Source: Candidatus Berkelbacteria bacterium (GTDB lineage Bacteria; Patescibacteriota; UBA1384; DTJR01). From it: DNA of 64,000 nucleotides. The DNA lies in NCBI GenBank assembly GCA_029865605.1, contig JAOUGE010000004.1, positions 2,562-66,561 of the forward strand, read 5' to 3'. This document shows, one piece after another, positions 4,706 through 58,699 of the stretch; within the stretch, counting starts at the first letter, position 1; each line of letters begins with the position of its first letter. The notes beneath the pieces are model-generated. The model did not search any database. It had not been told where the DNA came from and was given only the letters and a program-made list of their open reading frames with translations. Position numbers and translations under genes: made by a program.

Positions 4706-5179
4706 ATGAAGAGGATATTAATTATTATTGCCGCGATAGTAATTGTTGGGGGAGTAGCTTATTACGCCTATTCGCGGTATGCCGCTCAAAAGCGCTCCGA
4801 AGAACTAGCGGCAGAGTTTACCGAAACCGGCTTTAAGTTGGGCTCGGGCGCTGACGAGAAAGTTGTCGAGAAAATCAATGAACCCCTTAAGATTGACTAC
4901 GGAGTTAGTATTTACCCGGGCTCAAAAGCGTCGGAAACTCCCTCCGCCTATGTTGAAAACGCGGGAGTCCAATATACTATCGGGACCTTCAGCACCTCGG
5001 ATTCAGCCGATAAGGTGGTCGCTTACTATCAGAAACAATTCGGTTCCGATGCCCAGACTAACAAAGCGACTTTGGGGGACGTGGTCTATACCGTGATAAC
5101 AAAGAAAAACATCAACCGGCCGGTGGCGAGCGTTTACAGGGATGGCAAGCTCACCTCCTATATGCTAATTACTTACTAA
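4706..5179 (+). CDS. hypothetical membrane-anchored protein
   Basis: 157-aa ORF with N-terminal TM helix; no recognisable family. Confidence 0.4.
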   Translation: MKRILIIIAAIVIVGGVAYYAYSRYAAQKRSEELAAEFTETGFKLGSGADEKVVEKINEPLKIDYGVSIYPGSKASETPSAYVENAGVQYTIGTFSTSDSADKVVAYYQKQFGSDAQTNKATLGDVVYTVITKKNINRPVASVYRDGKLTSYMLITY

Positions 5180-5186
5180 ACTATGA

Positions 5187-6089
5187 ATGTATAAACAAAT
5201 CTCTTCAAACATACGCTTAACCTGGGGGCTAATGACCCTTTTTTTGATTTTTGTTATAGCTGTCGGCTGGGTTTTTGCCCGCGCTTATAGCGAGCCGATT
5301 ATTCTTGTTATCGCAGTCTTGGTCGCGGTCGCTCAGTCGCTTGTTTCCTATTATTATTCCGATAAAATCGCTCTTTTCACGACCGGCGCGAAGCAGCCGA
5401 AAAGATCGGATTTTTTGGAGCTCTTTAGGGTTGTCGAAAACCTATCCATTGCCTCCGGTTTGCCCCAACCTAAAATCTATGTCATTTCTGATCCGGCACC
5501 GAACGCCTTTGCCACTGGGCGCGACCCGAAAAATGCAACTTTAGCCGTGACGACAGGGCTTCTGCAACGCCTTAATAAGACCGAGCTCGAAGGGGTAATC
5601 TCTCACGAGATGTCTCATATCGGAAATTATGACATCCGGCTGATGACGGTTGTTGTTGTTTTAGTTGGTGTGATAGCGCTTTTGGCCGATTGGTTTTTGC
5701 GAATGCGCTTTTGGGGCTTTCGCGGCAATGATCGCGAAGGCGGCGGCGCGTATTTGGTTTTGATCGGTTTGATTCTGTCGATTTTGGCGCCGATTTCAGC
5801 GACTTTGATTCAGCTGGCAATTTCACGACGGCGCGAGTACTTGGCCGACGCAACCGGCGCTTTGATGACCCGCTATCCGGAAGGTCTGGCCAGCGCCCTT
5901 GAAAAAATAGCTTTGGAGAAGAGAGAAATGCGTCTTAAAAATCGCGCTACCGCTCATCTTTTTATTGCTGATCCTTATAAGTCCGATAAAAAATCTCAAA
6001 AGAGCGAGTCTTGGCTGGCGGTTGCCTTTTCTACGCATCCACCGATTGCCGAGCGCATCCGGCGTTTGCGGGAGATGATAGGACGCTAA
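5187..6089 (+). CDS. htpX: M48 zinc metalloprotease HtpX
   Basis: HEMSHIGNYD HExxH motif, four TM segments, typical HtpX length. Confidence 0.85.
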   Translation: MYKQISSNIRLTWGLMTLFLIFVIAVGWVFARAYSEPIILVIAVLVAVAQSLVSYYYSDKIALFTTGAKQPKRSDFLELFRVVENLSIASGLPQPKIYVISDPAPNAFATGRDPKNATLAVTTGLLQRLNKTELEGVISHEMSHIGNYDIRLMTVVVVLVGVIALLADWFLRMRFWGFRGNDREGGGAYLVLIGLILSILAPISATLIQLAISRRREYLADATGALMTRYPEGLASALEKIALEKREMRLKNRATAHLFIADPYKSDKKSQKSESWLAVAFSTHPPIAERIRRLREMIGR

Positions 6090-6348: not shown

Positions 6349-8070
6349 ATGATCAACAAAACCTGTCGACAGTGTAAAAAAGAATTCGCAGTCGAGGACG
6401 ACGACCTCTCATTTTACAAAAAAATCTCCCCCACTTTTGCCGGAAAGACCTTTGATATCCCCCCGCCAACCTCGTGTCCGGAGTGTCGTCAGATGCGTCG
6501 GCTTGCCTGGCGTAATGAAAGGTCGATTTATAAACGAAAATGCGATAAAACAGGCAGAGAAATCGTCAGCATTTTTTCTCCTGACAAAAAAGATTACACT
6601 GTTTACGATCAGCAGATCTGGTGGGGTGACACTTGGGACGCTATGGAATATGGACAGGACTTTGATCCCAACCAGCCGTTTTTTAAGCAATTAGGCCTGC
6701 TCAATAAAAAAGTACCTAAGCTCTCTTTAAATAATATAAACACGGTAAATAGCGAGTACGGCAATCACGTGATGGAGATAAAAAACTGCTATATGTCGGT
6801 AGTTACTTATTATGGCAGTGAGGACGTGCATTATTCTTACGGGGCATTCACTTGTAAAAACTCCATTGACTTATTCATCAGCGAGAAGTGTGAAAACAGC
6901 TATCGCCTTATATATTGTGACAACTGTTATAATTGCCGATATTCTCAACGGCTCAACAATTGCACTGATTGTTATTATTCTATTGATCTGACGGCGTGCT
7001 CGAATTGCCTTTTTTGCTCGAACTTAAAGCACAAGGAATACCACATTCACAACAAAAAATATTCTAAAGAAGATTACGAAAAAGAGCTGCAAAAATATGA
7101 TTTTGGTTCTTGGGAAAAATCAAAGCAATATTGGCAGGAGTTTGTTGAGTTAAAAAATAACTCGATCGTTAAGTTCGCTAACAATGTAAATTGCGATAAT
7201 TGTTCGGGCGATGATTTGACAAATTGCAAGGATGTGAAGTATTCCTTCAGCCAGAAGAGATCGGAACATTCAAAATACAGTTTGCGAGGGGTAAATGATA
7301 AATACTGCTATGACTATATGGGTGGGGACATAGAGTGGGGTTATGAGTTTTTGAGCTCGGGCTATGGCAGCTCTATTTTATTTTGCTATTTAGAAGAAAG
7401 GTCGGCAAACTTGGCTTATTGCATAAGCTGCTTTGGCTGCCGAGATTGCTTTGGGTGTGTGGGATTGAAGAATAAACAGTACTGCGTATTTAATAAAGAG
7501 TATTCAAAGGAAAGTTACGAAGCTTTTGTAGCAAAAATTATTGAGAGGATGATGGCGGATAAAGAGTGGGGAGAGTTTTATCCCTATCAAATGTCGCCGT
7601 TTGGTTTTAACGAGACGCTTGGCTATTCTTATTATCCAATCAAAAAAGAGGAAGCACTAAAGCTTGGCGCCAAGTGGCAGGACGATGATTTCGGTATTAA
7701 ATTTGATGGTAAATTCTATGAGCCGGAAGACGATATTGAAGAGTATAACAAGAGCCAAGAGAAGCGGGAAGAACTGTTGAATGGCGTATTGAAGTGCGAA
7801 GTTTCCGGCAAGCCGTTTAAAATAGTTCCGCAGGAACTTGCATTTTATATGGAACAAAAAGTCCCGATTCCGAGGAAACATTATGACATTAGATACAAAG
7901 AAAATTTTGCTCTTCAGAATCCCCGTAAACTCTGGCATCGCCAATGTGTGTGTGAAGAAAAAGGTCACGGTCACGAGGGAAGATGTAAAAACGAATTCGA
8001 GACAACATACGCTTCCGACAGACCGGAAAAGGTGTATTGCGAAAAGTGCTACCAGAAATCTGTTATTTAG
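6349..8070 (+). CDS. cysteine-rich paralog A1 (zinc-ribbon-like termini, tandem CxxC repeat core), function unknown
   Basis: 573 aa. N-terminus CxxC...CPxCR...RRLAWRNER..YKRKC; C-terminus ELAFY..PIPRKHYD...HRQCVCEE.GHGHEGRC..FETTYAxDRPEKVYCEKCYQKSVI; homologous to six other ORFs in the window. Confidence 0.8.
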   Translation: MINKTCRQCKKEFAVEDDDLSFYKKISPTFAGKTFDIPPPTSCPECRQMRRLAWRNERSIYKRKCDKTGREIVSIFSPDKKDYTVYDQQIWWGDTWDAMEYGQDFDPNQPFFKQLGLLNKKVPKLSLNNINTVNSEYGNHVMEIKNCYMSVVTYYGSEDVHYSYGAFTCKNSIDLFISEKCENSYRLIYCDNCYNCRYSQRLNNCTDCYYSIDLTACSNCLFCSNLKHKEYHIHNKKYSKEDYEKELQKYDFGSWEKSKQYWQEFVELKNNSIVKFANNVNCDNCSGDDLTNCKDVKYSFSQKRSEHSKYSLRGVNDKYCYDYMGGDIEWGYEFLSSGYGSSILFCYLEERSANLAYCISCFGCRDCFGCVGLKNKQYCVFNKEYSKESYEAFVAKIIERMMADKEWGEFYPYQMSPFGFNETLGYSYYPIKKEEALKLGAKWQDDDFGIKFDGKFYEPEDDIEEYNKSQEKREELLNGVLKCEVSGKPFKIVPQELAFYMEQKVPIPRKHYDIRYKENFALQNPRKLWHRQCVCEEKGHGHEGRCKNEFETTYASDRPEKVYCEKCYQKSVI

Positions 8071-43115: not shown

Positions 43116-43296
43116 CCTATCTGGAGGCTAATTGCATTTAAGTATTTGACATAAACAGGACAAGACATGAAGCAGGCAGTCCAGCTTTCTGCTGGGCTCT
43201 TTGTTTTAGAGCCCGTAACTTGACAATTAGAATCAGTGTGGGATATGCAGCCAAGGACTCATTTCTAAGTCCCAATCTCACATTGAAAATTCTGGT

Positions 43297-43314
43297 TTGA
43301 CAAAACCAGATGAG
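43297..43314 (+). promoter_or_regulatory. 5' strand of 16S precursor processing stem
   Basis: TTGACAAAACCAGATGAG is complementary to 44907-44924 (CTCATCTGGTTTTGTCAG), as expected for an RNase III processing stem. Confidence 0.6.
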
Positions 43315-43371
43315 AACGCCTGGTGAATGGCGTTTAAGAAGTGATTTACAAAAAATATTGAGTCAAATCAA

Positions 43372-44835
43372 TTCTACTAAGAGTTTGATCCTGGCTCAGG
43401 ATGAACGCTAGCGGCGTACCTAAAACATGCAAGTCGCGCGCTTGTAAAAGCGCGGCAAACGGGTGAGTAACGCGTGGGAATCTGCCCCGAACTGGGAAAT
43501 ACCCCGCCGAAAGGTGGGTTAATGTCCCATAGTCTCCGCCTTTGGCGGAGTAAAGCTCCGGCGGTTCGGGAGGAGCCTGCGTCCTATCAGCTTGTTGGTA
43601 GGGTAAAAGCCTACCAAGGCAATGACGGGTAGGGGGTGTGAGAGCATGGCCCCCCACAACGGCACTGAGACACGGGCCGTACACCTACGGGTGGCAGCAG
43701 TTAGGAATAGTACGCAATGGGCGAAAGCCTGACGTCGTGACGCCGCGTGGAGGAAGAAGGCCTCCGGGTTGTAAACTCCTTTTCTGCAGGAAGATTATGA
43801 CTGTACTGCAGGAATAAGCATCGGCTAATTACGTGCCAGAAGCCTCGGTAATACGTGGGATGCGAGCGTTATCCGGAATTATTGGGCGTAAAGAGCGCGT
43901 AGGCGGCCAAGAAAGTCCGACCTTAAAACTAGCGGCTTAACCGCTAAGATGGGTCGGAGACTTTTTGGCTTGAGCATTTGCAGGGGCAAGCGGAATCTGC
44001 GGTGTAGGGGTAAAATCCATTGATATCGCAGAGAACACCAATGGCGAAGGCAGCTTGCTAGGCATTGTCTGACGCTGAGGCGCGAAAGCGTGGGTAGCGA
44101 ACGGGATTAGATACCCCGGTAGTCCACGCCGTAAACTATGCGAACTAGGTATTGGGATAATCGACCGTCCTGGTACCGAAGCTAACGCGTTAAGTTCGCC
44201 GCCTGGGGAGTACGAGCGCAAGCTTAAAACTCAAAGGAATTGGCGGGGGCTCGCACAAGCGGTGGAACATGGGGTTTAATTCGACAGTAAGCGGAGAACC
44301 TCACCAAGGTTTGACATCTACGGAATCCCCGAGAAACCGGGGAGTGCCCGCAAGGGAGCCGTAAGACAGGTGCTGCACGGTCGTCGTCAGCTCGTGGCTT
44401 GAGTTGTTCCGTTAAGTCGGGAAACGAGCGCAACCCCTATCGTCTGTTAAATTTCTCAGGCGAGACTGCCTCGGCAACGGGGAGGAAGGTGGGGATGACG
44501 TCAGATCAGCGTGGCCTTTATACCTTGGGCAACACCCGTGTTACAATGGCCGTTACAGAGGGTCGCAATATCGCGAGATGGAGCTAATCCCCAAAAACGG
44601 TCCAAGTTCGGATTGAAGTCTGCAATTCGACTTCATGAAGCCGGAATCGCTAGTAACCGTGGATCAGCTACGCCACGGTGAATACGTTCTCGAGCCTTGC
44701 ACACACCGCCCGTCAAGGCAGGAAAGCCGGCAATGCCTGAATCCCGCATTTTGCGGGACACGGCAGGGTCGGTGATCAGGCCTAAGTCGTAACAAGGTAT
44801 CCGTAGGGGAATCTGCGGATGGATCACCTCCTTTC
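43372..44835 (+). rRNA. rrs: 16S ribosomal RNA
   Basis: AGAGTTTGATCCTGGCTCAG at 43380; universal blocks GTGCCAGAAGCCTCGGTAATAC, ACGGGCGGTGTGT complement and GTCGTAACAAGGTA; 3' end GGATCACCTCCTTTCT. Confidence 0.95.
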
Positions 44836-44906
44836 TAGGGAGTTAAGCCCCGACCTTGAGTCGGGGAAGATCATGGTTGATCGCACGAACTCCAATTTGT
44901 GCGCTT

Positions 44907-44929
44907 CTCATCTGGTTTTGTCAGACTGG
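44907..44929 (+). promoter_or_regulatory. 3' strand of 16S processing stem; first copy of an 18-nt direct repeat
   Basis: Complementary to 43297-43314. CTGGTTTTGTCAGACTGG (44912-44929) recurs at 45846-45863 with one mismatch. Confidence 0.55.
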
Positions 44930-45028
44930 AGATTGTCCTGTATGATCTAAAGTAGTCGCCGCAAGGCGGTTTTTGTAGTTGGAGTTGGTTTTATGCTATG
45001 ATGGAACTAGATTTAATAAGGAGGATAG

Positions 45029-45844
45029 ATGGGCCCCGAACACTCACAGCACGGTCCTGAAGACATGGGAGTAACTCCACCTTCCCCAGACCCATTTGGC
45101 AGAACGAGAGAGCAAGAGCCAGAGACTTTTGTTAAGGATGAAAATTTGGCTCGGGACATGGCTGATGCCATAGCTCCAGGAATGGATAAAGCCCGTGAGA
45201 TTGAAAAAGCCGGAAGCGATGTCGTAGAAAACCGACAGAGAGTATTGGATGAATATAGCGGGCGGTTTTGGCCTGGTGGGTTGATTGGGCATCACAGTGA
45301 TATTGAATTTCCAGCCGATAATCCTCCGATAAAAAAGCAGGATGTAATTTTCGCCCGCGTCTATTGTGATTTGGCCAGACGTCATGCCGAGGAAATAGTC
45401 TGGGATCAGTCTCTTCCTAGCGATGACAAATACAAGCTCTTAGACGGGATTCAGCCGGGGATGAGTGGAGCCTTGCGAGGTGATCCGGCCGCCACAGATC
45501 TCCAATTTTACGATTCTGTAGCCAAGGGAATGGGAGGAAGGCTGGAGATACACCACGTACCTCAATTGTTGGGAAGGATAATAGGGTTTCTTGCCACGTC
45601 AAAAGCAGTAAATGAACAGACATTGAATACGATGATTGATGCTTTGGGGAGAAGGTACAGTCAGGATCGAGCTGAGGGCAGGGCCAGAGTCTTAGATATA
45701 TTGGCCCCGGAGATCGTCATGATGAGGCAAGTGCCAGAAGGCTTCTTTGCCAGTAAACACGATTTGTATGACAGATTGATGGCAGAAAGCGACCGTAAAC
45801 GGAATCCTCAAACTGGAAGATACGAATTAAAATTGGAAATCTAG
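45029..45844 (+). CDS. hypothetical protein inserted immediately downstream of 16S rRNA
   Basis: 271 aa with strong RBS AAGGAGG; flanked by the 18-nt direct repeats at 44912-44929 and 45846-45863. Confidence 0.5.
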   Translation: MGPEHSQHGPEDMGVTPPSPDPFGRTREQEPETFVKDENLARDMADAIAPGMDKAREIEKAGSDVVENRQRVLDEYSGRFWPGGLIGHHSDIEFPADNPPIKKQDVIFARVYCDLARRHAEEIVWDQSLPSDDKYKLLDGIQPGMSGALRGDPAATDLQFYDSVAKGMGGRLEIHHVPQLLGRIIGFLATSKAVNEQTLNTMIDALGRRYSQDRAEGRARVLDILAPEIVMMRQVPEGFFASKHDLYDRLMAESDRKRNPQTGRYELKLEI

Positions 45845-46064
45845 CCTGGTTTTGTCAGATTGGGAACTATTCTTTTAGCGGCGAACGATTTAGGGATCAC
45901 ACCCGCCTTTTTTTTGATTATTTGGTAAAATGAATGTGTAACCTCTGTGGTTTAGGTAGAGTTTTTGGTTATGAACCACCATTAAAGGAGGGGAGATCGA
46001 GGGAACTACTCAGCCAAAGGTAAAGAAGGACTTCCGCGATTACCCGATCGCTTTTGGGTTTGTT

Positions 46065-46406
46065 TTGTGGTGGCTATATGAAATTCCCCACCTGATTATA
46101 GTTACCACACTTAGAACTAGCAGAAAGCTGTTCTCCTTTTTTTCTATTAACTTGCTCTTTCGCACTTTGTTTCTTCCTTGGAAAAGAGACGAGATTGACA
46201 CGACTAATATGTCTCTTGACGACAAGCTTCAAGTTTGGATTATGAATCTTGTCTCAAGGTTGGCCGGTGCAGTTGTTAGGTCGATTACTATCCTGTTGGG
46301 CCTGTTAGCCGTATCTTTAACCTACGCTCTTGGAGCGGTTTCGCTTATCGGATTTATCGGGTTGCCGGTTTTAGGTGTATTGGTAATTGTTTTAAGTTTA
46401 ATTTAA
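46065..46406 (+). CDS. small membrane protein
   Basis: 113 aa with four hydrophobic segments; its stop lies 1 nt before the next start. Confidence 0.4.
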   Translation: MWWLYEIPHLIIVTTLRTSRKLFSFFSINLLFRTLFLPWKRDEIDTTNMSLDDKLQVWIMNLVSRLAGAVVRSITILLGLLAVSLTYALGAVSLIGFIGLPVLGVLVIVLSLI

Positions 46407-46407: not shown

Positions 46408-48918
46408 ATGGATAATTTTGACTTGAAGAAAGCTCGAAATTTCGGCAAATACCGATCGGGGAAGGCGATTGAGTCGTCTCCGGTCACGGTTTTTGTCGGA
46501 TTCTTATGGTTCGCGGCCCTTATTTCCGCTCTTGTCCTTATTGCAGGTAGATTTTTTGAACCCCTTGCTTTTCTCGTGAAGGCAGGCTTTCTTACTCTCG
46601 GATTTTCGTCCCTGATTCTCTTTTACCTCTCCTTTTTACGTGCCTTTTATGTCCCCAGGGTCTATATAGACTCGGGTAATGCCGCCGAAGCTTTAAGTCT
46701 GCCGGTTATGGAGATGTTGCTTGATAGTATTAATATTGCCCGAGAGAATCAGTTTGCCGAGATCTCGCCTGTTATTCTTCTGGCTGCTCTTGATAAAAAT
46801 CAAGACGGTAAATATCTCCTCTTACGTTGCGGCTTTGGCATTGAGAAAGACACCTCGGCTATTATTGCTCAAGAAGTAGCTTCTCTGCCAAAAGGGAAGG
46901 TCGCCGAACCGGCAATTTCGCAGTCGACTCTCTTGGTTATTGAAGCGGCAAGAAAAAATGCACAAGATAACTCCAGAGGCTCGGTTTCGTCAGGGGATAT
47001 CCTACTAGCCCTTATTCAAAAGAGCGATATTTTCAAAAAAATGATGTTTGAAATCAAAATCGAAGAGCAAGACATAAAACAGGTTGTCGAGTGGCACGAG
47101 ATGCTCAAGAACTATTCCGAAGAACTGAAAAAACCGTTTTTAAAAAAAGAGACGATTGAGGGCGGAATAGGTAGGGACTGGAGCTTTGGCTATACGGTCA
47201 CTCTTAACCAATTTGCTCGCAACCTCAACCTCCAGGTTCAAGGTATCGGAGCAGTTCATATCTACGGGAGAAGTCAGGTGGTAGACGAAATCGAACGGAT
47301 TTTAGCTAAGACCGGTGAGAACAACGTTCTTCTGATCGGGGATCACGGGATAGGTAAGAAGACGATCGTTAAAGGTTTTGCTACGAAAATTGTTCAAGGA
47401 AAAGTCCTGCCCTCCTTGCGCTATATGCAGATTTTTCATGTTGACACCGGAGCGGTTTTGTCCGGCTCAAGCAATCCGGGCGAGGTCGCCTTAAGGGTGA
47501 GGAAAATTTTTAATGAAGCCGCCCGGGCTGGCAACACGATTCTCTTTTTTGATAACTTTCACGCCTTGGTTTCCTCGGAAGAGGGTGTAGGCAAGGTTAA
47601 TACCTCCGAAATTATTCTCCCCTATCTTCAGGGAAATATTAACGTTATCGGCGCAACGACGCTTGAGGATTATCACAAGCATATCGAGGCTAACCCCGGA
47701 GTTGCGGCGGTTTTTAATCGTATTGAAGTTAAAGAACCCACCCAGCCGGAGACAATCCAGATTTTGGGAGAGGTTATTCCGATTATTGAACATCGCGACG
47801 GTGTCTTTTGGCCATATCAGGCAATCAAAGAAGTGGTCAGGGTTGCCGATCGCTACATTCACAACAAACCCTTTCCCCGCAAAGCGATTGAGATTGTTGA
47901 CGAGATATCGGTTGATGTAGCCAAATCGGGAGGAAAGGTAGTTCACCCGAAAACAATCGATGAGCTTGTAAGCCGCAAACTTGAAGTGCCAGTTTCTCAA
48001 GCGGAGGGGGAAGAAGCGCAGAAACTTATGCACCTTGAGGAATTTCTGCATAAGAGAGTTATCGGCCAGGACGAAGCGATTCAGGCAGTGGCTTCAGCAA
48101 TGCGCCGAGCTCGCTCCGGAATTCAGTCCAAGCAGCGGCCGATTGGCAACTTTTTGTTCTTGGGTCCAACGGGGGTGGGAAAAACTGAAACCTCAAAGGC
48201 ATTGGCCGAGGCCTATTTTGGCTCCGAAAAAAATATGATTAGAGTTGATATGAGCGAATTTCAGGAACAATCTTCAATTTACCGCCTGATCGGCTCTCCT
48301 CCCGCCGCCGGAGCCGAAGGCGAGAAAGGCCAGCTGACAACGGCCGTTGCCGACAATCCCTTTTCTCTGATTTTACTTGATGAAATCGAAAAGGCACACC
48401 ACGATATTTCGACGCTCTTTCTGCAGGTATTCGACGACGGTCGCTTAACTGACGGGACTGGCAGAACTATTGACTTTACTAACACGATTATTATTGCTAC
48501 CTCAAACGCGGGAAGCGAGCAAATAAGACAAAACCTGTTGCGGGGAGTTCACGGCGACCAAATGAAAAAATCGCTTTTAGAATTTTTGCAGCGCCAAGGA
48601 ATCTTCCGCCCCGAATTCTTAAACCGCTTTGACGCCGTTGTCGCTTTCCACCCCCTAACCAGAGAACAGATTAAGCAGGTGGCAGGACTAATGCTTAAGA
48701 GTCTGGCCGAGCGGATGGCTGAAAAGGAGATTACGATTGAGTTTACGCCGGCCGCGGTTGAAAAGTTAGCGGCGGTAGGCTTTGATCCCGTTTATGGCGC
48801 CCGCCCGATGCGCCGGGCTATTCAGGACAAGGTGGAAAATGTTTTGGCCAATAATATTTTGGCGGGTAAAATCGCCCGCGGCTCGAAGGTAATTTTGGAT
48901 GAGAAAGATATAGTGTGA
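46408..48918 (+). CDS. Clp/Hsp100-family AAA+ ATPase (ClpC/ClpB-like) with N-terminal transmembrane region
   Basis: Two TM helices at the N-terminus; Clp_N-like repeat; degenerate D1 Walker A (GDHGIGKKT); canonical D2 (LGPTGVGKTETSKALAE, sensor-2 GARPMRR). Confidence 0.7.
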   Translation: MDNFDLKKARNFGKYRSGKAIESSPVTVFVGFLWFAALISALVLIAGRFFEPLAFLVKAGFLTLGFSSLILFYLSFLRAFYVPRVYIDSGNAAEALSLPVMEMLLDSINIARENQFAEISPVILLAALDKNQDGKYLLLRCGFGIEKDTSAIIAQEVASLPKGKVAEPAISQSTLLVIEAARKNAQDNSRGSVSSGDILLALIQKSDIFKKMMFEIKIEEQDIKQVVEWHEMLKNYSEELKKPFLKKETIEGGIGRDWSFGYTVTLNQFARNLNLQVQGIGAVHIYGRSQVVDEIERILAKTGENNVLLIGDHGIGKKTIVKGFATKIVQGKVLPSLRYMQIFHVDTGAVLSGSSNPGEVALRVRKIFNEAARAGNTILFFDNFHALVSSEEGVGKVNTSEIILPYLQGNINVIGATTLEDYHKHIEANPGVAAVFNRIEVKEPTQPETIQILGEVIPIIEHRDGVFWPYQAIKEVVRVADRYIHNKPFPRKAIEIVDEISVDVAKSGGKVVHPKTIDELVSRKLEVPVSQAEGEEAQKLMHLEEFLHKRVIGQDEAIQAVASAMRRARSGIQSKQRPIGNFLFLGPTGVGKTETSKALAEAYFGSEKNMIRVDMSEFQEQSSIYRLIGSPPAAGAEGEKGQLTTAVADNPFSLILLDEIEKAHHDISTLFLQVFDDGRLTDGTGRTIDFTNTIIIATSNAGSEQIRQNLLRGVHGDQMKKSLLEFLQRQGIFRPEFLNRFDAVVAFHPLTREQIKQVAGLMLKSLAERMAEKEITIEFTPAAVEKLAAVGFDPVYGARPMRRAIQDKVENVLANNILAGKIARGSKVILDEKDIV

Positions 48919-51593: not shown

Positions 51594-51670
51594 GGGCGTA
51601 TAGCTCAGCTGGTTAGAGCGCGTCACTGATAATGACGAGGTCCATGGTTCGAGTCCATGTACGCCCACCA
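51594..51670 (+). tRNA. tRNA-Ile (anticodon GAT)
   Basis: Clean cloverleaf: acceptor GGGCGTA/TACGCCC, anticodon stem CGTCA/TGACG with loop CTGATAA, T-loop TTCGAGT, encoded CCA. Confidence 0.9.
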
Positions 51671-51738
51671 AAAGACCATAAAATAATAATTCGGAGGTTC
51701 AGCCGATATTCATTGGAAAAATAATTGTCGGCGAGGTT

Positions 51739-51755
51739 TCCTCCATCGCCCACCA
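51739..51755 (+). repeat. copy 1 of TCCTCCATCGCCCACCA (tRNA 3' acceptor + CCA-like)
   Basis: ATCGCCC is the exact complement of the GGGCGAT acceptor of the 5' half at 51468, and is followed by A+CCA. GGAGG TTCA (51693) lies upstream, but no canonical T-arm forms. Confidence 0.5.
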
Positions 51756-51848
51756 GGATTGTTTTGGTGGTAAGGACTCGAAGGCCGGAGTGCGACGGCG
51801 CGAGGCGGGGTCGCGAGCAATTTCAGCAGAAATTGACTTGTGACCGAG

Positions 51849-51865
51849 TCCTCCATCGCCCACCA
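51849..51865 (+). repeat. copy 2 of TCCTCCATCGCCCACCA
   Basis: Identical 17-mer 110 nt downstream of copy 1; preceded by the long hairpin AGGACTCG...CGAGTCCT. Confidence 0.5.
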
Positions 51866-51870
51866 TTTTT

Positions 51871-52350
51871 ATGACTTTAACCGCACATGTAGCAACGGGT
51901 ATTGCCGTCGGTTCACTCACAGACAACTCCTCTGTGGGTTTTTTTGCTGGTTGGCTTACTCACCACGTAGTTGACGGTATTCCCCACAGCGACCCAGGTT
52001 CTTGGGGAGCGGTTGGCGAAAGTGTTTTTAAAAACAGAAGATCTTTGATTTGGACGGTCTGCGATATCACAATTGCCACAACTTTATTTTTCTTGTTTCT
52101 CTCACTCTCGGGCTTTTCCACAGTACTCTTTATTTCGGTGTTGGGTGCAGCCATACCCGATTTAATAGATAACTCTCCGTTTTGGAGTAAACCGTTAAGA
52201 AAACTGCCTCCCCTAAAGTGGTTTCATCAGTTCCATGAAGTTATTCACTATACCATTAAGGTTAAGAAATATCTCTGGCTGGGAATTATGACCCAAATTT
52301 TGATAATAATTGTATCTCTTGCCGCTTTTTTGCTGTCCTCGGCTCGTTAG
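51871..52350 (+). CDS. YdjM-like membrane-bound metal-dependent hydrolase (DUF457)
   Basis: His-rich N-terminus (GWLTHHVVDGIPHSDPG) and PDLIDNSP resembling the PDIDHP motif; multiple TM helices. Confidence 0.4.
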   Translation: MTLTAHVATGIAVGSLTDNSSVGFFAGWLTHHVVDGIPHSDPGSWGAVGESVFKNRRSLIWTVCDITIATTLFFLFLSLSGFSTVLFISVLGAAIPDLIDNSPFWSKPLRKLPPLKWFHQFHEVIHYTIKVKKYLWLGIMTQILIIIVSLAAFLLSSAR

Positions 52351-52449: not shown

Positions 52450-54699
52450 ATGAGCCAAGAAGATCTTTTAGTTGCGAAAGATTATGTTATTAAGCTGCCT
52501 AGAGCGGTTGCTTTTGAACCGAAGGCGTTTAGCGAATTTTTGCGTACTACCTCAAGGATAATGAAAAACCTTCCCTTTGCTTTTCTTATGACGATGGAGG
52601 GAAAGAAAATTTATTACGGAATAAGATCTAACAGAAGCTATTATAATGTCATTGAAAATCAGCTTTACTCCGCCTTTCCTGGCGTTGAAGTGGAAGAAAC
52701 TGAAAGAGAGATGTTTTCGGGTAGGTTTGAAAACGGGGCCAGAGCAATCCTTTGGCTTAAGCACGGCGACTTTTATCCGTTTTTAAAACACGATCAGATT
52801 GAAGGGGATTTTCTGGCTGATTTCTATAACCAATTCACTCATCTTACAGCCCAAGATCAGTTTTATTTTCAGGTGAAGATTTGTCCTTTGGACTATAATC
52901 GGATGAGATTTTCCCTAGCGAGGAGTTTAAGACTGGGTATGAAAAGTCTTAGAGATAGAGTTAATATTATTGAGGCAGTAACCTCCAAAAAGGCTTCGGC
53001 CGGGGTAAAGAGAATGGCTTACGAAGCGGCCATTGAGAAAAACAAACAGCCTCTTTTTCTCTGCGAGATTGATTTGGTTGTTTACTCTGACAGTTATGAA
53101 ACGGCGAGATTGAAATTGGAGCCGATTGCCCATGTATTTCAGAAACTAGAGAGCGATTATAATGAGTTTTATTATAAAATTCAACCCCTAGCCGAGTCGG
53201 ATGTTGATGAACTAAGATCATTTAAATTCGGCCGCCAGGCGGTTTGTTTGGCACCGGACGAACTTTCCACGATCTACCACTTCCCGCCTCACACTGACCA
53301 GGTGCCCAATCTTTATAAAATTATGTCGCCCAAAGCCGAGCCGCCAATAGGGCTCCCGACTCCAGACAATACTCCACCCGAAGAGTTGTGCCTTTTTGCC
53401 CAAACTAACTATCGAAATATCAGGGAGATTTTTGGCATCAAACGCCGCGATCGCGTCCGCCACATGTATATGATTGGCAAGTCTGGCTCTGGCAAGTCTA
53501 AACTGATGGAGTTGATGATTAAAAACGACATCGAACAAGGCCATGGTGTTTGCGTGATTGACCCTCACGGCGACTTAATTGAGAATATTCTTCCTTTTGT
53601 CCCCGAGTCAAGAGTTAAAGACACGATCTATTTTAATCCGGTTGACGAGGAATATCCGATTTCTTTTAACCCGCTGGAAAAAGTTGACCGAATGTACCGC
53701 CAGCAGGTGGCGAGCGGCTTGATCGAAATATTTAAGAAGACCTTTGGCGCTAACTGGTCACCGCGGCTTGAGCATGTCTTGCGAATGACAATATTGGCTC
53801 TTCTTGATGCGCCCAGAGCTTCGGTGATGTCGATTCTCCTTCTTTTAACCGACAGGGAGTATAGGCAAGAAGTGATAAAAAATATTGAGGATCAAGTCGT
53901 CAAGAATTTCTGGACCAATGAATTTGCCAGCTGGAGCGAAAAGTTTGACAGCGAAGCGATTATGCCCGTTTTGAACAAAATCGGCCAGTTTGTATCAACT
54001 ACGGTTATTAGAAATATCGTTGGTCAGGAAGAAAACAAAATCAATATGAAAGATATTATGGATAATCGCAAGATTATTTTCGTTAAGCTCCCCAAGGGAG
54101 TGTTAAACGAAGAAAACACCTCGCTTCTTGGCGCAATGGTTATTACCAAAATCTATCAGAACGCTCTGGCCCGTTCGGAAGTTCCCGAGCACCAGCGAGT
54201 TCCATTCTATCTTTACGTTGACGAGTTTCAAAACTTTGCCACCGATACTTTTTCAAATATTCTGTCGGAGGCAAGAAAATATAAATTGAGTTTAACCCTG
54301 GCCCACCAGTATGTTTCGCAGCTAAGCGATCTTATTAAGAGAACGGTTTTTGGTAATGTCGGTTCGATTGTTTCGTTTAGAGTAGGCCCCGAGGACGCCT
54401 TGCTTTTAGCTAAAGAGTTTGAGCCGAGATTTACCGATGCTGATATTGTCAATCTTGGCGTGAGGGAAATTTATCTAAAACTTTCAATTGACGATGAGAT
54501 TAGAGAGGCCTTCTCGGCTAGAACCCTGGCAATGCCGCAGGTTGAGACGAGCTTCAAAGAGCAGATTGTTGCCTTCACCCGTGAGAATTACTGTCGCTCT
54601 AGAGAAACCGCCGAACATGAAATCAGCCGCGAAAAATCGAAAGAAATGGAAGTTCTTGATAAACTCAAAGGCGAAAACTTCTCCGCGCCGATTTTATAA
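52450..54699 (+). CDS. DUF87/HerA-FtsK-superfamily ATPase of the TraD/VirD4/TraG coupling-protein type
   Basis: Walker A MIGKSGSGKSKLM, CVIDPHGDL (the xIDPxGE/D motif of DUF87 and T4 coupling proteins), Walker B LYVDEFQNF, arginine finger region; 749 aa. Confidence 0.6.
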   Translation: MSQEDLLVAKDYVIKLPRAVAFEPKAFSEFLRTTSRIMKNLPFAFLMTMEGKKIYYGIRSNRSYYNVIENQLYSAFPGVEVEETEREMFSGRFENGARAILWLKHGDFYPFLKHDQIEGDFLADFYNQFTHLTAQDQFYFQVKICPLDYNRMRFSLARSLRLGMKSLRDRVNIIEAVTSKKASAGVKRMAYEAAIEKNKQPLFLCEIDLVVYSDSYETARLKLEPIAHVFQKLESDYNEFYYKIQPLAESDVDELRSFKFGRQAVCLAPDELSTIYHFPPHTDQVPNLYKIMSPKAEPPIGLPTPDNTPPEELCLFAQTNYRNIREIFGIKRRDRVRHMYMIGKSGSGKSKLMELMIKNDIEQGHGVCVIDPHGDLIENILPFVPESRVKDTIYFNPVDEEYPISFNPLEKVDRMYRQQVASGLIEIFKKTFGANWSPRLEHVLRMTILALLDAPRASVMSILLLLTDREYRQEVIKNIEDQVVKNFWTNEFASWSEKFDSEAIMPVLNKIGQFVSTTVIRNIVGQEENKINMKDIMDNRKIIFVKLPKGVLNEENTSLLGAMVITKIYQNALARSEVPEHQRVPFYLYVDEFQNFATDTFSNILSEARKYKLSLTLAHQYVSQLSDLIKRTVFGNVGSIVSFRVGPEDALLLAKEFEPRFTDADIVNLGVREIYLKLSIDDEIREAFSARTLAMPQVETSFKEQIVAFTRENYCRSRETAEHEISREKSKEMEVLDKLKGENFSAPIL

Positions 54700-54719
54700 G
54701 TTATTATCTTATTTGCGGG

Positions 54720-54776
54720 TTTAGCGAGTTTTTCGGGTTTGAAATTCTAACTCGCTAAATAAATAACTCGCTAAAT
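54720..54776. promoter_or_regulatory. TTAGCGAGTT / AACTCGCTAA inverted and direct repeats upstream of paralog C1
   Basis: TTTAGCGAGTT (54720-54730) pairs with AACTCGCTAAA (54749-54759); a second AACTCGCTAAAT lies at 54765. Two more TTAGCGAGTT copies follow C1 at 56521-56540. Confidence 0.4.
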
Positions 54777-54790
54777 AGAAAAATTGAAGA

Positions 54791-56509
54791 ATGGCTATTA
54801 ATAAAACCTGCAAACAGTGTAAAAAAGGATTCGTGGTTTTGGATGATGATTTGGTCTATTTGGACAGAATTTCGCCAACCTTCGCGGGTAAAAAGTTCTC
54901 TGTTCCGGCACCATCTCTTTGTACGGACTGTCGCATGCAGAGGCGCGTAGCTTGGAGAAACGAAAGAAATCTTTATAAGAGAAAGTGCGATCTTTGTCAA
55001 GAACAGATAGTTGCTTTATATGAACAAGATTCGCCATTCGCAGTTTATTGCCAAAAATGCTTTTGGTCGGATAAGTGGAACCCACTAGAATTTGCTAAAG
55101 ATTATGATCCTTCAAGGTCTTTTATCGAACAGATTAAAGAAATACAAAAAAAAGCTCCTCGCCTAGCCCTCCTTAATACTTTTTCGGAAAATTCGGAGTT
55201 TACTAATCATTCCTCAAAAAATAAGGATTGCTATTTAGTTTTTGCTTCGTTTGATAATGAGCGCGTCATGTACTGCCGAAAAACTCGTAACTCCAAAGAT
55301 ATCTTGGATTGCACGACCTGTTTTTACGGCTCAGAGCTTTGTTACGAATGTTTTTTGATTGAGAATTGTTATTCCTTGAAATATTCAGTCAACTGCAAGA
55401 ACTGCTCAAATTCCAATTTTCTTTTTGATTGTCTGGACTGTAAGGATTGTTACATGTGTTACGGGCTTCGTAATAAACAGTATTATTTTGAAAATAAGCA
55501 ATTAAGCGAAGAGGAATATAAAAGAAGGATACCTAACTTAGGATCTCGCAAAATTCGAGATGCCGAAAGAAAAAGATTCATAGAATTTTCGAAAGATGCT
55601 GTACGCAAATATGCGAGATTTACAAACTCCGAGAATTCCACTGGTGATGATCTTATTAATTGTTCGAGATGTGTTAATTGTTATGATGTTGAAAAAGCTG
55701 AAGATTGCAAGAATTTTGAGCATGGCGAAGTCCTTAATTGGTGCGTTGATTGTTATGGTGCCGGTAACCCCGGGGAGTATCTTTACGAAGTGCACGGTAT
55801 CTTAGATGGTCATAATTGTGCTTTTACGCACGCTAGCTATCATTCGTCCCGTGTCTACTATTGTGATAATTGCCAAAACTGTCAGGATATTTTTGGCTGT
55901 GTCAGTTTAAAAAAATCTCAATATGCAATTTTAAATAAGCAATATTCGCGTGATGAATACGAAAAGAAAATTGCCGAAATAATTGAAAAAATGACCCAAG
56001 CTGGTGAGTGGGGAGAATTTTTCCCAATCGGTATGAGCCCATTTGCCTATAATGAAACCTTGGCTTCTGAATATTTTCCTCTTAAAAAAGAGGGGGTTGA
56101 GGCAATTGGCGCTAAATGGAGAGATATCACCCATGAAAAAATTAATATAGAAACAGTCATCCCGCATGATGATATATCTGTCTACATCGATTCAAAAGAG
56201 GAGGTAGAAAAATTATTAGCCTCTGCTATAAAATGTTCGGTAACCGGTATTCCTTTTAGAATCTTGCCGCAGGAAATGGTTTTCTATTTGAAAGAAAAAA
56301 TCCCGGTCCCGGAAATTCATTATGATGCACGTCATGCCGAGAGACAGAAATATGTTAACCCCCGCAAGCTTTGTAAGCGCCAATGCATGTGCGAAGAACA
56401 AGGACACCACCACGAAGGAAGATGTAAAGTAGAATTTGAAACCACATACACACCCGATAGGCCAGAGAAAGTATATTGCGAGAGGTGTTACCAGAAATCA
56501 GTTATTTGA
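54791..56509 (+). CDS. cysteine-rich paralog C1
   Basis: 572 aa; conserved family termini (CKQCKKGF...CTDCRMQRRVAWRNERNLYKRKCD; ...QCMCEEQGHHHEGRC...TPDRPEKVYCERCYQKSVI). Confidence 0.8.
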   Translation: MAINKTCKQCKKGFVVLDDDLVYLDRISPTFAGKKFSVPAPSLCTDCRMQRRVAWRNERNLYKRKCDLCQEQIVALYEQDSPFAVYCQKCFWSDKWNPLEFAKDYDPSRSFIEQIKEIQKKAPRLALLNTFSENSEFTNHSSKNKDCYLVFASFDNERVMYCRKTRNSKDILDCTTCFYGSELCYECFLIENCYSLKYSVNCKNCSNSNFLFDCLDCKDCYMCYGLRNKQYYFENKQLSEEEYKRRIPNLGSRKIRDAERKRFIEFSKDAVRKYARFTNSENSTGDDLINCSRCVNCYDVEKAEDCKNFEHGEVLNWCVDCYGAGNPGEYLYEVHGILDGHNCAFTHASYHSSRVYYCDNCQNCQDIFGCVSLKKSQYAILNKQYSRDEYEKKIAEIIEKMTQAGEWGEFFPIGMSPFAYNETLASEYFPLKKEGVEAIGAKWRDITHEKINIETVIPHDDISVYIDSKEEVEKLLASAIKCSVTGIPFRILPQEMVFYLKEKIPVPEIHYDARHAERQKYVNPRKLCKRQCMCEEQGHHHEGRCKVEFETTYTPDRPEKVYCERCYQKSVI

Positions 56510-56583
56510 TTATTACGAGTTTAGCGAGTTAGCGAGTTTCAACCCGCTAAATAACCAACTTGCCAAATAAAAAATAAATTAAT

Positions 56584-58308
56584 ATGCCTTTATCCAAAAC
56601 CTGCAAGCAATGTAGTCAGCAATTCACGGTAGAAGATGAAGACTTAGAATTCTACAAAAAAGTCTCCCCGACTTTGGGTGGAAAAACTTACGAATGGCCG
56701 GCGCCGACATTATGTATGTTTTGCCGGGGAATGAGACGGCAAGCTTGGCGCAACGAAAGAAATCTCTATAAGACTAAATGCGCTAAATCCGGCAAGGAAA
56801 TTGTAAGCGTTTATTCACCAGACAAGACCGACTATAAAGTGTATGAACTTTCCGAATGGTGGAAAGATGATTGGGACGCGATGCAATATGGCAAGGAGTT
56901 TGATTCCTCGCGGGGATTTTTTGATCAGTTTGATGAGTTATTAAAAGCTGTGCCAAGACTGTCTCTCTTTAATACCCAAACTCAAAACTGCGATTATGTA
57001 AACTACACGGCTGAATGCAAAGACTGCTATATGTCCTCCGTTATTTATTATCAATGCGATAAAGTTCATTATTCATATCTGACTTATTATTCGAAAAATA
57101 GCATTGACATAGGGTATTGTGACAAAGTTGAAAACTGCTACGAGCTGGTCAGCAGTAATGGTTGCTATGGTTGTCGGTATTCGAATCGTTTAACGAATTG
57201 TCGCGACTGCTATTTTTGCCAGGATTTAAATGGCTGCTCAGATTGCATTTTGTCAAACAACCTAACTCGCAAACAGTATTGCGTCAGAAATAAACAGTTA
57301 ACAAAAGAAGAATATGAAAAAGAAAAAAAGGAATTAGATCTTGGCTCCTATCAAAAAGTTAATGAATACTTGAAAGAATATGAGCAAATGAGAAAGGGGG
57401 CGATCGTCAAATTTGCCAATCTGCTTAATTGCGAGAATTGCGAGGGCGATAATTTGATTAACTGCAAGAATGTTAAGAAATGTTTTAGCGCAGTCAGGGT
57501 TGAAAATAGCCGTTATTCGTTTGATCAAGAGGATGGGAAAAATATCTATGACTGTGAAGGCGGCTCTTACGAGTGGGCGGTTGAATCAAACCACACAGGA
57601 TTTGGCTCTAACTTTATCGTCTGTTCTGGAGTTTTGAATTCCAGTTTTCTTTATTATTGTGAAAATTGCCATAACTGCCGTGATTGTTTCGGCTGTGTCG
57701 GTTTAAGGGGCAAGCAATTCTGCGTTTTTAATAAGCAATATAGCAAGGAAGAATATGAGCAGTTAGTAGAAAAAATTATTAAGAAGATGGTAGAAGGTGG
57801 CGAATGGGGCGAATTCTTCCCCTTTAGATTGAGTCCTTTTGGGTATAATGAATCACTGGCTAATGATTATCATCCCAAAACGAAAGAAGAGGTAAAAGGA
57901 ATCGGTGCTAAATGGCAGGATAATGATTATTCGCTTAAATACGATGGCCCCTTTTATGAACCCAAAGATAATATTAAGGACTATATTGAAAATGAGGGGG
58001 AAAGGAACAAACTGCTGGCTGGTATATTAAAGTGCGAGGTCTCGGGCAAGCCGTTTAAGCTGGTTCCGCAAGAACTCGCCTTTTACTTTGAGCAGGGAGT
58101 TCCTATACCACGCAGGCACTATGATGTTCGCTACAAAGAGCGGTTTAAGATGAGAAATCCCAAAGTATTACACCATCGCCAGTGTGTGTGCGAAGAACAA
58201 GGGCATGAGCATGAAGGAAGATGTGAGAACGAATTTGAAACGACCTATGCGCCGGATCGTCCGGAGAAAATATACTGCGAGAGGTGCTATCAGAAAAGCG
58301 TTGTGTAG
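56584..58308 (+). CDS. cysteine-rich paralog C2
   Basis: 574 aa; conserved family termini (CKQCSQQF..EDEDLEFYKKVSP; ...HRQCVCEEQGHEHEGRC...YAPDRPEKIYCERCYQKSVV). Confidence 0.8.
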   Translation: MPLSKTCKQCSQQFTVEDEDLEFYKKVSPTLGGKTYEWPAPTLCMFCRGMRRQAWRNERNLYKTKCAKSGKEIVSVYSPDKTDYKVYELSEWWKDDWDAMQYGKEFDSSRGFFDQFDELLKAVPRLSLFNTQTQNCDYVNYTAECKDCYMSSVIYYQCDKVHYSYLTYYSKNSIDIGYCDKVENCYELVSSNGCYGCRYSNRLTNCRDCYFCQDLNGCSDCILSNNLTRKQYCVRNKQLTKEEYEKEKKELDLGSYQKVNEYLKEYEQMRKGAIVKFANLLNCENCEGDNLINCKNVKKCFSAVRVENSRYSFDQEDGKNIYDCEGGSYEWAVESNHTGFGSNFIVCSGVLNSSFLYYCENCHNCRDCFGCVGLRGKQFCVFNKQYSKEEYEQLVEKIIKKMVEGGEWGEFFPFRLSPFGYNESLANDYHPKTKEEVKGIGAKWQDNDYSLKYDGPFYEPKDNIKDYIENEGERNKLLAGILKCEVSGKPFKLVPQELAFYFEQGVPIPRRHYDVRYKERFKMRNPKVLHHRQCVCEEQGHEHEGRCENEFETTYAPDRPEKIYCERCYQKSVV

Positions 58309-58323
58309 CAAAAGGAGGGTTAT

Positions 58324-58620
58324 TTGATTGTAAATATTATTTTAAATAAGTGGGTTGTGCTGGCCTTGGGGGCGTTCTTTATGCTGGTTGGCTTAAAGCC
58401 CGATTGGGTAATGAAAGCCGTTTCATTCACCGGTAAAATGTGGTGGGCGGAAAATCGCTTGGGGCGGGGCGGAACCTTTACAGTATGGAAAATTATTGGT
58501 ATACTGGCGCCGATCGCAGCAATATACTATTTCTTTACTGGCGGTATTCATTTTGACACCCCAAAAGTTTCAGATGAACCCGCCAGCTATGACGAGGGCT
58601 ACACAGACTATAATTATTAA
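58324..58620 (+). CDS. small membrane protein
   Basis: 98 aa, two TM helices, RBS AAGGAGGG upstream. Confidence 0.45.
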   Translation: MIVNIILNKWVVLALGAFFMLVGLKPDWVMKAVSFTGKMWWAENRLGRGGTFTVWKIIGILAPIAAIYYFFTGGIHFDTPKVSDEPASYDEGYTDYNY

Positions 58621-58623: not shown

Positions 58624-58699
58624 GGGCCATTAGCTCATTCGGTAGAGCGTCTCCCTTGCACGGAGAAGGTGGCCGGTTCGAATCCGGCATGGTCCACCA
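58624..58699 (+). tRNA. tRNA-Ala (anticodon TGC)
   Basis: Acceptor GGGCCAT/ATGGTCC with the G3:U70 Ala identity pair, anticodon loop CTTGCAC, T-loop TTCGAAT, encoded CCA. Confidence 0.9.

Follow-up and report, generated by a model that had tools for sequence, protein, structure and literature searches.

Gene Content and Order of the rRNA Region

The studied DNA is a 64,000-nt stretch (hereafter, the window) from a metagenome-assembled genome (MAG) of Candidatus Berkelbacteria, a member of the Candidate Phyla Radiation (CPR, or Patescibacteria). The analysis concerns its 16S rRNA gene and ORF271, a 271-aa open reading frame (ORF) that stands behind this gene between two copies of the 16S trailer and whose product is identical to a hypothetical protein on a 114,558-bp contig in ENA. 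The 16S rRNA gene (43373-44834, plus strand) is full length and free of insertions (Rfam RF00177, 1452.7 bits, model positions 1-1533). The only other RNA genes found in the window with Rfam are two tRNA genes, tRNA-Ile(GAT) and tRNA-Ala(TGC). An earlier note, made from the sequence of the window alone, had described this locus as a fragmented operon, in which a solitary 16S gene is followed by neither 23S nor 5S and the spacer tRNAs are displaced downstream. The lack of 23S and 5S is true of the window, but both genes follow on the ENA contig, which is identical to the window over their overlap of 11,628 nt. The 23S gene (window-equivalent positions 64330-67349, plus strand) starts 330 nt past the end of the window, and the 5S gene (67726-67842, plus strand) is located downstream of it. 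All genes lie on the plus strand, in the order 16S, 5 protein-coding sequences, tRNA-Ile, 5 coding sequences, tRNA-Ala, 8 coding sequences, 23S, and 5S, together covering about 24.5 kb; the gap between the 16S end (44834) and the 23S start (64330) is 19,495 nt and contains about 18 coding sequences and both tRNAs. The locus is a colinear, expanded rRNA region in the canonical order and not an operon devoid of 23S and 5S. It displays both properties by which unlinked rRNA genes have been recognized in CPR bacteria by Brewer et al. and Lui et al., namely a 16S-23S distance above 1500-2000 bp and the presence of protein genes and/or tRNAs between the rRNA genes.

The distinctive 16S 3' end was scanned in one genome per GTDB species, which yielded 78 CPR loci, and the downstream sequences of these loci were examined by tblastn, ARAGORN, and blastn. 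A scan of metagenomes with the trailer motif added 26 further trailers from the clade of the window, with the same synteny. In about 20 loci of the GTDB scan, including the complete Berkelbacteria genome CP011213, the 16S gene is directly followed by the gene of a small membrane-like protein, p113, and a ClpA/B-family ATPase with two AAA+ modules (ClpB-like ATPase); p113 adjoins 16S in more than 40 loci when the GTDB and metagenome sets are combined (tblastn). A conserved 159-aa protein, p159, is very often encoded next after tRNA-Ile in the GTDB-scan loci, with tRNA-Ala and 23S further downstream. The complete order 16S, p113, ClpB-like ATPase, tRNA-Ile, p159, tRNA-Ala, and 23S was found in dozens of Berkelbacteria-like MAGs. 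The spread-out layout, from 16S through the two tRNAs to 23S and 5S, is an inherited, ancestral condition that is common to the group, rather than a local accident. Hence, the earlier note was right that the two tRNAs are intact and lie far downstream, but the view that they were displaced by a local disruption is not upheld, given the conserved arrangement and the colinear 23S and 5S genes.

The 16S Unit and the Trailer Repeats

As judged from consensus matches, the 16S gene appears to be a self-contained unit that starts with a dedicated promoter, is enclosed by a long processing stem, and ends in an intrinsic terminator (Table 1). A TTGACA(A) hexamer in front of the gene may act as its promoter element. 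The flanking stem reported in the earlier note was recovered as an inverted repeat of 22 nt (43295-43316 and 44905-44926) with 21/22 (95%) complementary positions; the predicted duplex spans 43272-43320 paired with 44900-44936 and has an energy of -47.7 kcal/mol, compared with -15.8 ± 4.3 kcal/mol in random windows. Complementary leader and trailer strands are kept in relatives: two of them (L011 and L083) have the same sequences, and distant CPR bacteria possess a different leader/trailer pair that is still complementary (GGTTGTAAGAA / TTCTTACAACC). The trailer motif CTC(A/G)TCTGGTTTTGTCAG is almost invariant in the clade of the window, being located 60-230 nt past the 16S end in the 26 metagenome trailers and about 9 GTDB genomes. 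The stem strand is followed by an equivalent hairpin with a T-run in all relatives with an empty site (described below). The 16S and 23S genes are flanked by separate TTGACA promoter-like sites and separate processing stems, both being in-silico signals.

ORF271 begins behind the 16S terminator and, as the earlier note had stated, combines a strong ribosome-binding site with a position between direct repeats. These repeats (44912-44929 and 45846-45863) are real, although they match in 17 of 18 positions (CAGACTGG vs. CAGATTGG) and not in all 18. When the 3.6-kb region was simulated 1000 times with a first-order Markov model, a repeat of this quality appeared twice, i.e., with a chance of about 0.002. 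The 14-nt core of the repeat occurs three times in the 64 kb against 0.47 expected occurrences, the third one being the complementary leader strand. Hereafter, the two copies are named R1 and R2, and the segment between them is named X.

The extent of the duplication becomes apparent from a sister lineage that also carries ORF271 (L001, L097, and L141; the L001 and L141 contigs begin inside the 16S gene, and the leader lies outside both). Two nucleotides past the stop codon of its ORF, contig L001 contains a degenerate copy of the stem strand (CCTAGTTTTTGTCAAACTTGG), then about 45 extra nt, and then the segment GTCAGACTAAAAATGCTCTGTATGGCTAAATAACCCGCCGCAAGGCGGTTTTTG. The latter aligns with positions 44920-44975 of the window at 45/56 positions (score 48, the best of 100 shuffles being 29) and repeats the 16S terminator of the sister lineage itself at 22/23 positions (score 41 vs. 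a shuffle maximum of 25-28); in L141 and L097, the 22/23 terminator repeat is likewise present on both sides of the ORF. The decay of R2 thus differs between the lineages, with the stem part preserved in the window (17/18) and the terminator part preserved in the sister lineage (22/23). The original duplication covered the whole trailer module, from the 3' strand of the stem through the terminator, which amounts to about 64 nt or more (44912-44975), so that the 18-nt repeat is its best-kept core and not a target-site duplication of the transposon type. The earlier note had taken the repeats for an insertion signature; a duplication does flank the insert, but it is a decayed trailer duplication instead of a transposon-type scar. 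A simple tandem duplication of the promoter region was also considered and rejected: the regions upstream of ORF271 and p113 in the window share only the 18-nt repeat.

Among the relatives' inserts tested, significant flanking trailer repeats were detected only at the loci bearing ORF271. No repeats above the shuffle controls were found around the other inserts at this site in L029, L065, L087, L110, L118, and L131, and the result for L127 was marginal. A second motif observed in L110 (Ga0265595_1003090) was discarded: the last 80 nt of this contig repeat its own 16S trailer (CTCATCTGGTTTTGTCAGATCATAAG...) inside the N-terminal part of the ClpB gene, and the contig end is most likely chimeric.

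A duplicated stem strand could in principle act as a functional RNA element, which on read-through transcripts would rival the genuine trailer strand in pairing with the 16S leader and thereby couple 16S processing to the expression or 3'-end formation of ORF271. R2 can indeed pair with the leader by a 12-nt perfect match and an 8-nt extension (TCCCAATC/GATTGGGA), the predicted duplex reaches -32.6 kcal/mol against the same -15.8 ± 4.3 kcal/mol for random windows, and the stem core is better kept than the rest of R2. However, complementarity to the leader is automatic when the stem strand is duplicated, and a good intrinsic terminator separates 16S from ORF271. Moreover, the orthologous R2 in L001 and L141 has two substitutions and two indels in the core, and the leaders of L011 and L083 lack the partner of the 8-nt extension. 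We consider such a role of R2 very improbable.

Empty and Filled Sites in Related Genomes

A comparison of the 16S 3' flanks, which the earlier note had proposed, supports its suggestion that ORF271 is an insertion. An empty site with a single trailer motif and without ORF271 was observed in at least 5 GTDB genomes (L011, L022, L024, L053, and L079) and about 14 metagenome contigs, that is, in about 19 relatives. Behind the trailer strand, these sites have a terminator made of a hairpin and a T-run, then a promoter-like stretch, AGGAGG, and p113, which lies 158-300 nt from the trailer motif and 255-390 nt from the 16S end. In the window, the 16S end is separated from the listed p113 start by 1231 nt; once the repeat spacing of 934 nt is subtracted, the remaining 297 nt correspond to the size of the empty sites. 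In contig L100, which has an empty site, one trailer module is joined directly to the block upstream of p113 (GGGGTGAATTTT..CTTGATACTGTATACTT) that is found behind R2 in L001. The filled allele can be written as R1-X-R2-(p113 upstream) and the empty allele as R-(p113 upstream), where R is directly followed by GAACTATTC... of the p113 upstream block. Segment X, about 870 nt long, starts with TAGTTGGAG... and contains the extended -10 promoter, the Shine-Dalgarno (SD) sequence, and ORF271 itself. The structure of the two alleles and the 297-nt remainder support the reading of ORF271 as an insertion at the 16S 3' flank.

The distribution of ORF271 can be set against the sequence identity of the neighboring ClpB-like ATPase. 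The ORF271 proteins of the window and L001 are 69% identical, and their ClpB-like ATPases are 87% identical; for all other members of the clade, including the empty-site relatives, the ClpB identity is at most 72%, and ORF271 is lacking. By parsimony, the insertion dates to the common ancestor of the lineage of the window and the single sister lineage, and it precedes a split with a synonymous divergence (dS) of about 1.

Other, unrelated cargo is found at the same position in relatives, comprising sigma-factor-like, exonuclease III-like, phosphotransferase-like, and ankyrin-like ORFs as well as blocks of 2-8 kb. This position past the 16S terminator is a general hot spot of gene gain, and a clear duplication scar is seen there only with ORF271. 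A different kind of ORF occurs in L029, where the first 360 nt past the 16S end encode an 88-aa GIY-YIG nuclease (Pfam E=8e-17) in the loop of the second trailer hairpin, so that this ORF falls within the pre-16S precursor, past the 16S 3' end but before the processing-stem strand.

The ORF271 Family

ORF271 is preceded by an extended -10 element and an SD sequence, both of which are conserved in L001 and L141 (TGtTATAAT / TATGAT and AAGGAGG) and are probably functional. Relative to the L001 ortholog, the ratio of nonsynonymous to synonymous substitution rates (dN/dS) is 0.23 with a dS of about 0.94, and by this low ratio ORF271 is a real gene under purifying selection. The family is exceptionally small: among 15 billion proteins it is represented by only three lineages, namely that of the window, the sister lineage, and one distant lineage, with all members at this same site. 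Two word-indexed searches and an exhaustive HMMER search of 1.84 billion representatives returned only the window protein, the 69% ortholog, and a 28% homolog, and a hidden Markov model built from four sequences detected no further relatives among all ORFs of about 150 fetched loci. No match to ORF271 was obtained in Pfam, PHROGs, NCBIfam, PADLOC, or a PDB profile search, nor in phages and plasmids by tblastn, so the similarity to homing endonucleases or selfish elements envisaged in the earlier note did not materialize, and neither PADLOC nor PHROGs nor tblastn identified the gene as anti-phage defense, phage, or plasmid cargo. The protein is predicted to be all-helical, although the AlphaFold2 model, built on a two-sequence alignment, is poor (predicted local distance difference test score only 49), and a Foldseek comparison of this model with PDB gave nothing below E=0.4. 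Because most close relatives lack ORF271 and yet keep the same 16S unit, our working position is that ORF271 would be accessory cargo without a link to rRNA function or ribosome biogenesis.

The third lineage is known from P0003, a 28%-identical homolog (pairwise E-value 3e-12) that came from the exhaustive profile search and is encoded on a 933-nt Logan contig, L084 (SRR8925741). Its gene sits directly behind CTCATCTGGTTTTGTCAGG, a terminator, a promoter, and AAGGAGG. The stop codon is followed by TGCGCCTCTTGGCGCA..ATGGT, which agrees at 16/16 positions with the first hairpin of the L065 trailer, right behind 16S. Along the contig, 30 nt of trailer end precede 873 unique nt, and the last 30 nt belong to the start of a trailer. 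By the logic of contig ends, this form fits a k=31 assembly graph of a unique segment between two still-identical trailer copies, or else a chromosomal trailer together with an excised circle. On the evidence of this one short contig, there are two candidate histories: either the cassette is older than the branch of the window and L001, was lost many times, and had its repeats homogenized in L084, or it was inserted repeatedly with different repeat extents.

The second of these histories corresponds to a scenario in which ORF271 with its flanking trailer copies, or with one of them, forms a minimal mobile cassette that lacks a recombinase of its own and has invaded the 16S trailer more than once, in separate lineages of Berkelbacteria. 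Recombination between the two R copies would excise a circle, which could re-enter any related trailer in the Campbell manner, the near-invariant trailer acting as a portable attachment site or arm of homology. In each of the three lineages from which this very rare family is known, the gene stands directly behind CTCATCTGGTTTTGTCAG and a terminator, and the stop codon in L084 is followed by a copy of the trailer start, identical in hairpin 1 to that of L065. The form of the L084 contig points to an insertion that is recent and separate from the decayed one in the window, and the repeat extents differ, from hairpin 1 to the stem strand in L084 and from the stem strand to the terminator in the window. 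Nevertheless, three lineages do not make a statistical pattern, and the argument from L084 is one of contig ends in a single 933-nt contig. The window and L001 represent a single old event, because they share the same X|R2 junction 2 nt past the stop codon; the other inserts of relatives at this site have no flanking trailer repeats; and no circular junction was observed. We regard the mobile cassette as unlikely.

The opposite scenario assumes that the ancestor of the clade already had ORF271 between two trailer copies and that recombination between R1 and R2 cleanly removed it from most relatives, leaving a single-copy site. Direct repeats of about 64 nt or longer would promote exactly such a deletion, and a 28% homolog at the same site fits a gene that evolves fast, as does the identity of 69% for ORF271 where the ClpB-like ATPase has 87% (the latter falls to about 60% across the clade). 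However, this history demands many independent losses, since about 19 empty sites are distributed over several deep branches, and it still requires an original insertion or duplication, so that the timing of the event changes and not its nature. Clean loss in most relatives is quite improbable in our estimation.

Mode of Insertion

We consider it probable that the ORF271 segment was inserted behind the 16S unit in an ancestor, duplicating the trailer module, within an expanded layout that had been inherited. A segment of about 870 nt with its own extended -10 promoter, SD sequence, and ORF271 would have entered directly behind the 16S unit in the common ancestor of the two lineages, and this event would have duplicated the trailer module (the 3' strand of the stem and the terminator, about 64 nt or more), yielding R1-X-R2. 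The route was most likely recombination at the highly conserved trailer, as opposed to transposition or homing, because the duplication is too long for a target-site duplication and fits a single crossover with circular DNA. Candidate routes are the Campbell-type integration of a circle with trailer homology and other duplication-generating events of repair or slippage. Afterwards, R1 would have remained the working stem strand and terminator of 16S, and R2 most plausibly serves now mainly to terminate ORF271 and to insulate it from the p113-ClpB promoter downstream.

The insert resembles an integrated segment with attachment (att) sequences in that direct repeats surround it and the empty site has a single copy. 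No tyrosine or serine recombinase is encoded in the insert, and its neighbors encode p113, the ClpB-like ATPase, and an FG-GAP protein. ORF271, the only ORF of the insert, gave no transposase match in Pfam, PHROGs, or NCBIfam, contains no LAGLIDADG, GIY-YIG, HNH, or His-Cys box domain, and has no significant fold match for its low-confidence all-alpha model. No terminal inverted repeats were detected at the ends of the insert, where the duplication measures at least 18 nt, or about 64 nt when the sister lineage is considered, compared with 2-14 bp for target-site duplications.

These observations also bear on the insertion of a classical mobile element or homing endonuclease with target-site duplication, and on an assembly chimera. 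Direct repeats do bracket a single ORF, the rRNA loci of CPR bacteria are known hosts of homing endonucleases (Lui et al., 2021; PMC8172020, in the passages cited here), and L029 carries its GIY-YIG ORF inside a trailer hairpin. Against this, ORF271 has no nuclease, transposase, or integrase domain, terminal inverted repeats are missing, and a duplication of about 64 nt far exceeds that left by a transposon. An assembly error, which the earlier note had named as a possible refutation, is excluded by independent assemblies and samples: a Logan contig (SRR7132115) gives the 16S end, the ORF, and p113 identically, a second Logan contig reproduces the region up to the start of 23S, and different metagenomes show the same arrangement in the sister lineage. 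This group of explanations is largely refuted and hardly credible.

Several points weigh against the ancestral insertion by recombination that we prefer. Its mechanism is read only from how long the duplication is and from the missing mobility genes, with no intermediate observed, and its direction (a gain here vs. a loss elsewhere) from parsimony, while the transcription signals are consensus matches only. Neutral decay alone does not explain why the stem core of R2 was kept at 17/18 while the rest of R2 decayed. Finally, P0003 on L084 occupies the same site in an unplaced lineage, and either repeated insertion or an older origin followed by many losses could account for it.

Other Features of the Region

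The features delineated in the window are collected in Table 1.

Table 1. Features of the 16S rRNA locus and its downstream region, with positions in the 64,000-nt window
Feature	Position	Strand	Basis and remarks
TTGACA(A) hexamer, likely -35 element of a dedicated 16S promoter	43220-43225	+	same TTGACAA at the equivalent spot in the L011 and L083 leaders
Leader (5') strand of the predicted pre-16S processing stem, core CTGACAAAACCAGATGAGAA	43291-43319	+	inverted repeat, duplex energy, same sequence in L011 and L083
Trailer (3') strand of the predicted pre-16S processing stem, TTCTCATCTGGTTTTGTCAG...	44901-44930	+	inverted repeat, duplex energy
R1, trailer module copy 1 (3' strand of stem, spacer of about 30 nt, terminator)	44912-44975	+	17/18 repeat; 45/56 alignment with L001
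Predicted intrinsic terminator of the 16S unit, GCCGCAAGGCGG and U-tract	44954-44978	+	terminator scan, fold
Putative ORF271 expression signals	44994-45024	+	extended -10 TGcTATGAT at 44994-45002, SD AAGGAGG at 45018-45024; read from the sequence
ORF271, orphan protein (predicted all-alpha), inserted cargo	45029-45844	+	271 aa; AAGGAGG 5 nt before ATG
R2, trailer module copy 2, preserved core	45846-45863	+	begins 2 nt past the ORF271 stop codon
Decayed rest of R2: weak hairpin and T8 run, likely ORF271 terminator	45864-45916	+	fold
p113, small membrane-like protein	45996-46406	+	tblastn synteny; probable start ATC at 45996 after SD at 45984-45991
ClpA/B-family double-AAA+ ATPase, conserved partner of p113	46408-48918	+	Pfam AAA_2, ClpB_D2-small, AAA, AAA_lid_9; synteny
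tRNA-Ile(GAT)	51594-51670	+	Rfam, ARAGORN; conserved p159 (51871-52350) comes next
tRNA-Ala(TGC)	58624-58699	+	Rfam, ARAGORN; 23S starts 5.6 kb downstream

The start of p113 (45975-46406 in the window) appears to be a non-AUG isoleucine codon. About 23 of about 28 clade members have a strong AGGAGG with an in-frame ATC, ATA, or ATT 5-8 nt behind it and no ATG available; the observation refers to the window and to L001, L011, L022, L053, L079, L087, L099, L100, L103, L104, L110, L118, L127, L131, L136, and L137. Gene callers choose a later TTG start, which gives a protein of 113 aa rather than about 136. The gene of the ClpB-like ATPase in L065 consists of two well-conserved parts (3606-5399 and 6633-7235 downstream of 16S) that are about 1.2 kb apart, and the sequence between them may be an intein or another insertion.

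The p159 gene adjoins tRNA-Ile in more than 20 relatives (tblastn) and is encoded on the plus strand, but it is not among the ENA gene calls, where an overlapping, probably spurious 73-aa ORF on the minus strand (51699-51926) is annotated instead; p159 has no match in Pfam or NCBIfam. The interval between tRNA-Ile and tRNA-Ala (52450-58620) encodes a VirD4/TraG-type coupling ATPase and two large proteins without recognizable domains (572 and 574 aa), and L022, L099, and L136 have the VirD4-like gene at the corresponding position. The 23S gene is preceded by a separate TTGACA promoter-like site and flanked by a leader/trailer stem of 23 nt, GACAACATCACTCGAGTCGTTGTC / GACAACGACTCGAGTGATGTTGT (L004 11524-15480, window-equivalent about 63896-67852). 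The 376-nt spacer between 23S and 5S contains a small hydrophobic ORF beginning with ATGAAGAGCCCG.

On the 3' side of the leader stem (43320-43345, and in the leaders of L011 and L083), a conserved hairpin immediately precedes GGCGTTTAAGAAG, which resembles the boxA antitermination element of other bacteria (GCTCTTTAACAA). Within the 16S gene, the site of the universal primer 515F (43833-43851) reads GTGCCAGAAGCCTCGGTAA in place of GTGCCAGCMGCCGCGGTAA, and standard amplicon primers probably miss this organism. The 16S genes of the sister lineage and many relatives contain insertions (L001 1-120; L141 190-330 and about 2380-2415), and one site that recurs is immediately upstream of the final 45-50 nt of the gene; the alignments of relatives to the 1462-nt 16S gene of the window, which has no such insertion, break at positions 1410-1420.

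Implications and Comparison with Known Systems

The separation of rRNA genes by protein genes in CPR bacteria has been documented, and a fragmented operon as such adds little. Three points are new here. The expanded region is strictly colinear, with a gene content conserved across the group. Genes have been gained recurrently at the position right past the 16S terminator, with cargo that differs among relatives. Finally, one clean case offers the empty as well as the filled allele, and the gained gene in it stands between copies of the duplicated rRNA trailer. If the trailer were a reusable target of recombination, it would show how streamlined genomes poor in mobile elements gain accessory genes, and it would also bear on the reading of 16S-adjacent sequences in MAG binning and assembly. 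If, moreover, the repeated entry of a mobile cassette were true, genomes without classical mobile-element machinery would have in the rRNA flank a universal docking site through which genes are gained.

Unlinked rRNA genes in CPR bacteria were described by Brewer et al. (2019/2020; 10.1101/705046) and Lui et al. (2021; PMC8172020). According to the passages of the latter paper cited here, 27 of 34 circularized CPR genomes have unlinked rRNA genes, protein genes in the spacers were noted, and the S1 table lists a circular genome of Berkelbacteria (UBA1384) with a 16S-23S distance of 26,291 bp. In the cited passages, both papers classify distances and spacer types; these passages mention neither a conserved gene content (p113-ClpB behind 16S and p159 behind tRNA-Ile) nor a gene insertion flanked by trailers.

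Selfish ORFs encoding LAGLIDADG and GIY-YIG homing endonucleases occur in the introns and spacers of CPR rRNA genes, as cited in the same passages (PMC8172020; 10.1101/705046). ORF271 resembles them in being a single ORF next to or within the rRNA precursor with a patchy distribution among relatives, and L029 has a true GIY-YIG ORF in the same trailer. It is unlike them in having no endonuclease domain, in its location past the 16S terminator, in its own predicted promoter, and in the long flanking duplication.

The leader and trailer of 16S can be compared with the processing stems of pre-rRNA, which are substrates of RNase III in model bacteria. Here too, the flanks of the mature 16S rRNA would form a long helix, whose complementarity is kept in distant relatives. 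In contrast to those stems, the sequence of this putative processing stem is itself nearly invariant within the clade.

The filled site can also be compared with the genomic islands that integrate by a Campbell-type single crossover at the 3' ends of tRNA genes and are bordered by a duplicated att sequence. Unlike these islands, the insert behind 16S has no integrase in or near it, is only about 0.9 kb long with one cargo gene, and targets the 16S trailer. As in the islands, the direct repeats around ORF271 duplicate the 3' flank of a stable RNA over tens of nucleotides, and the empty site contains a single copy.

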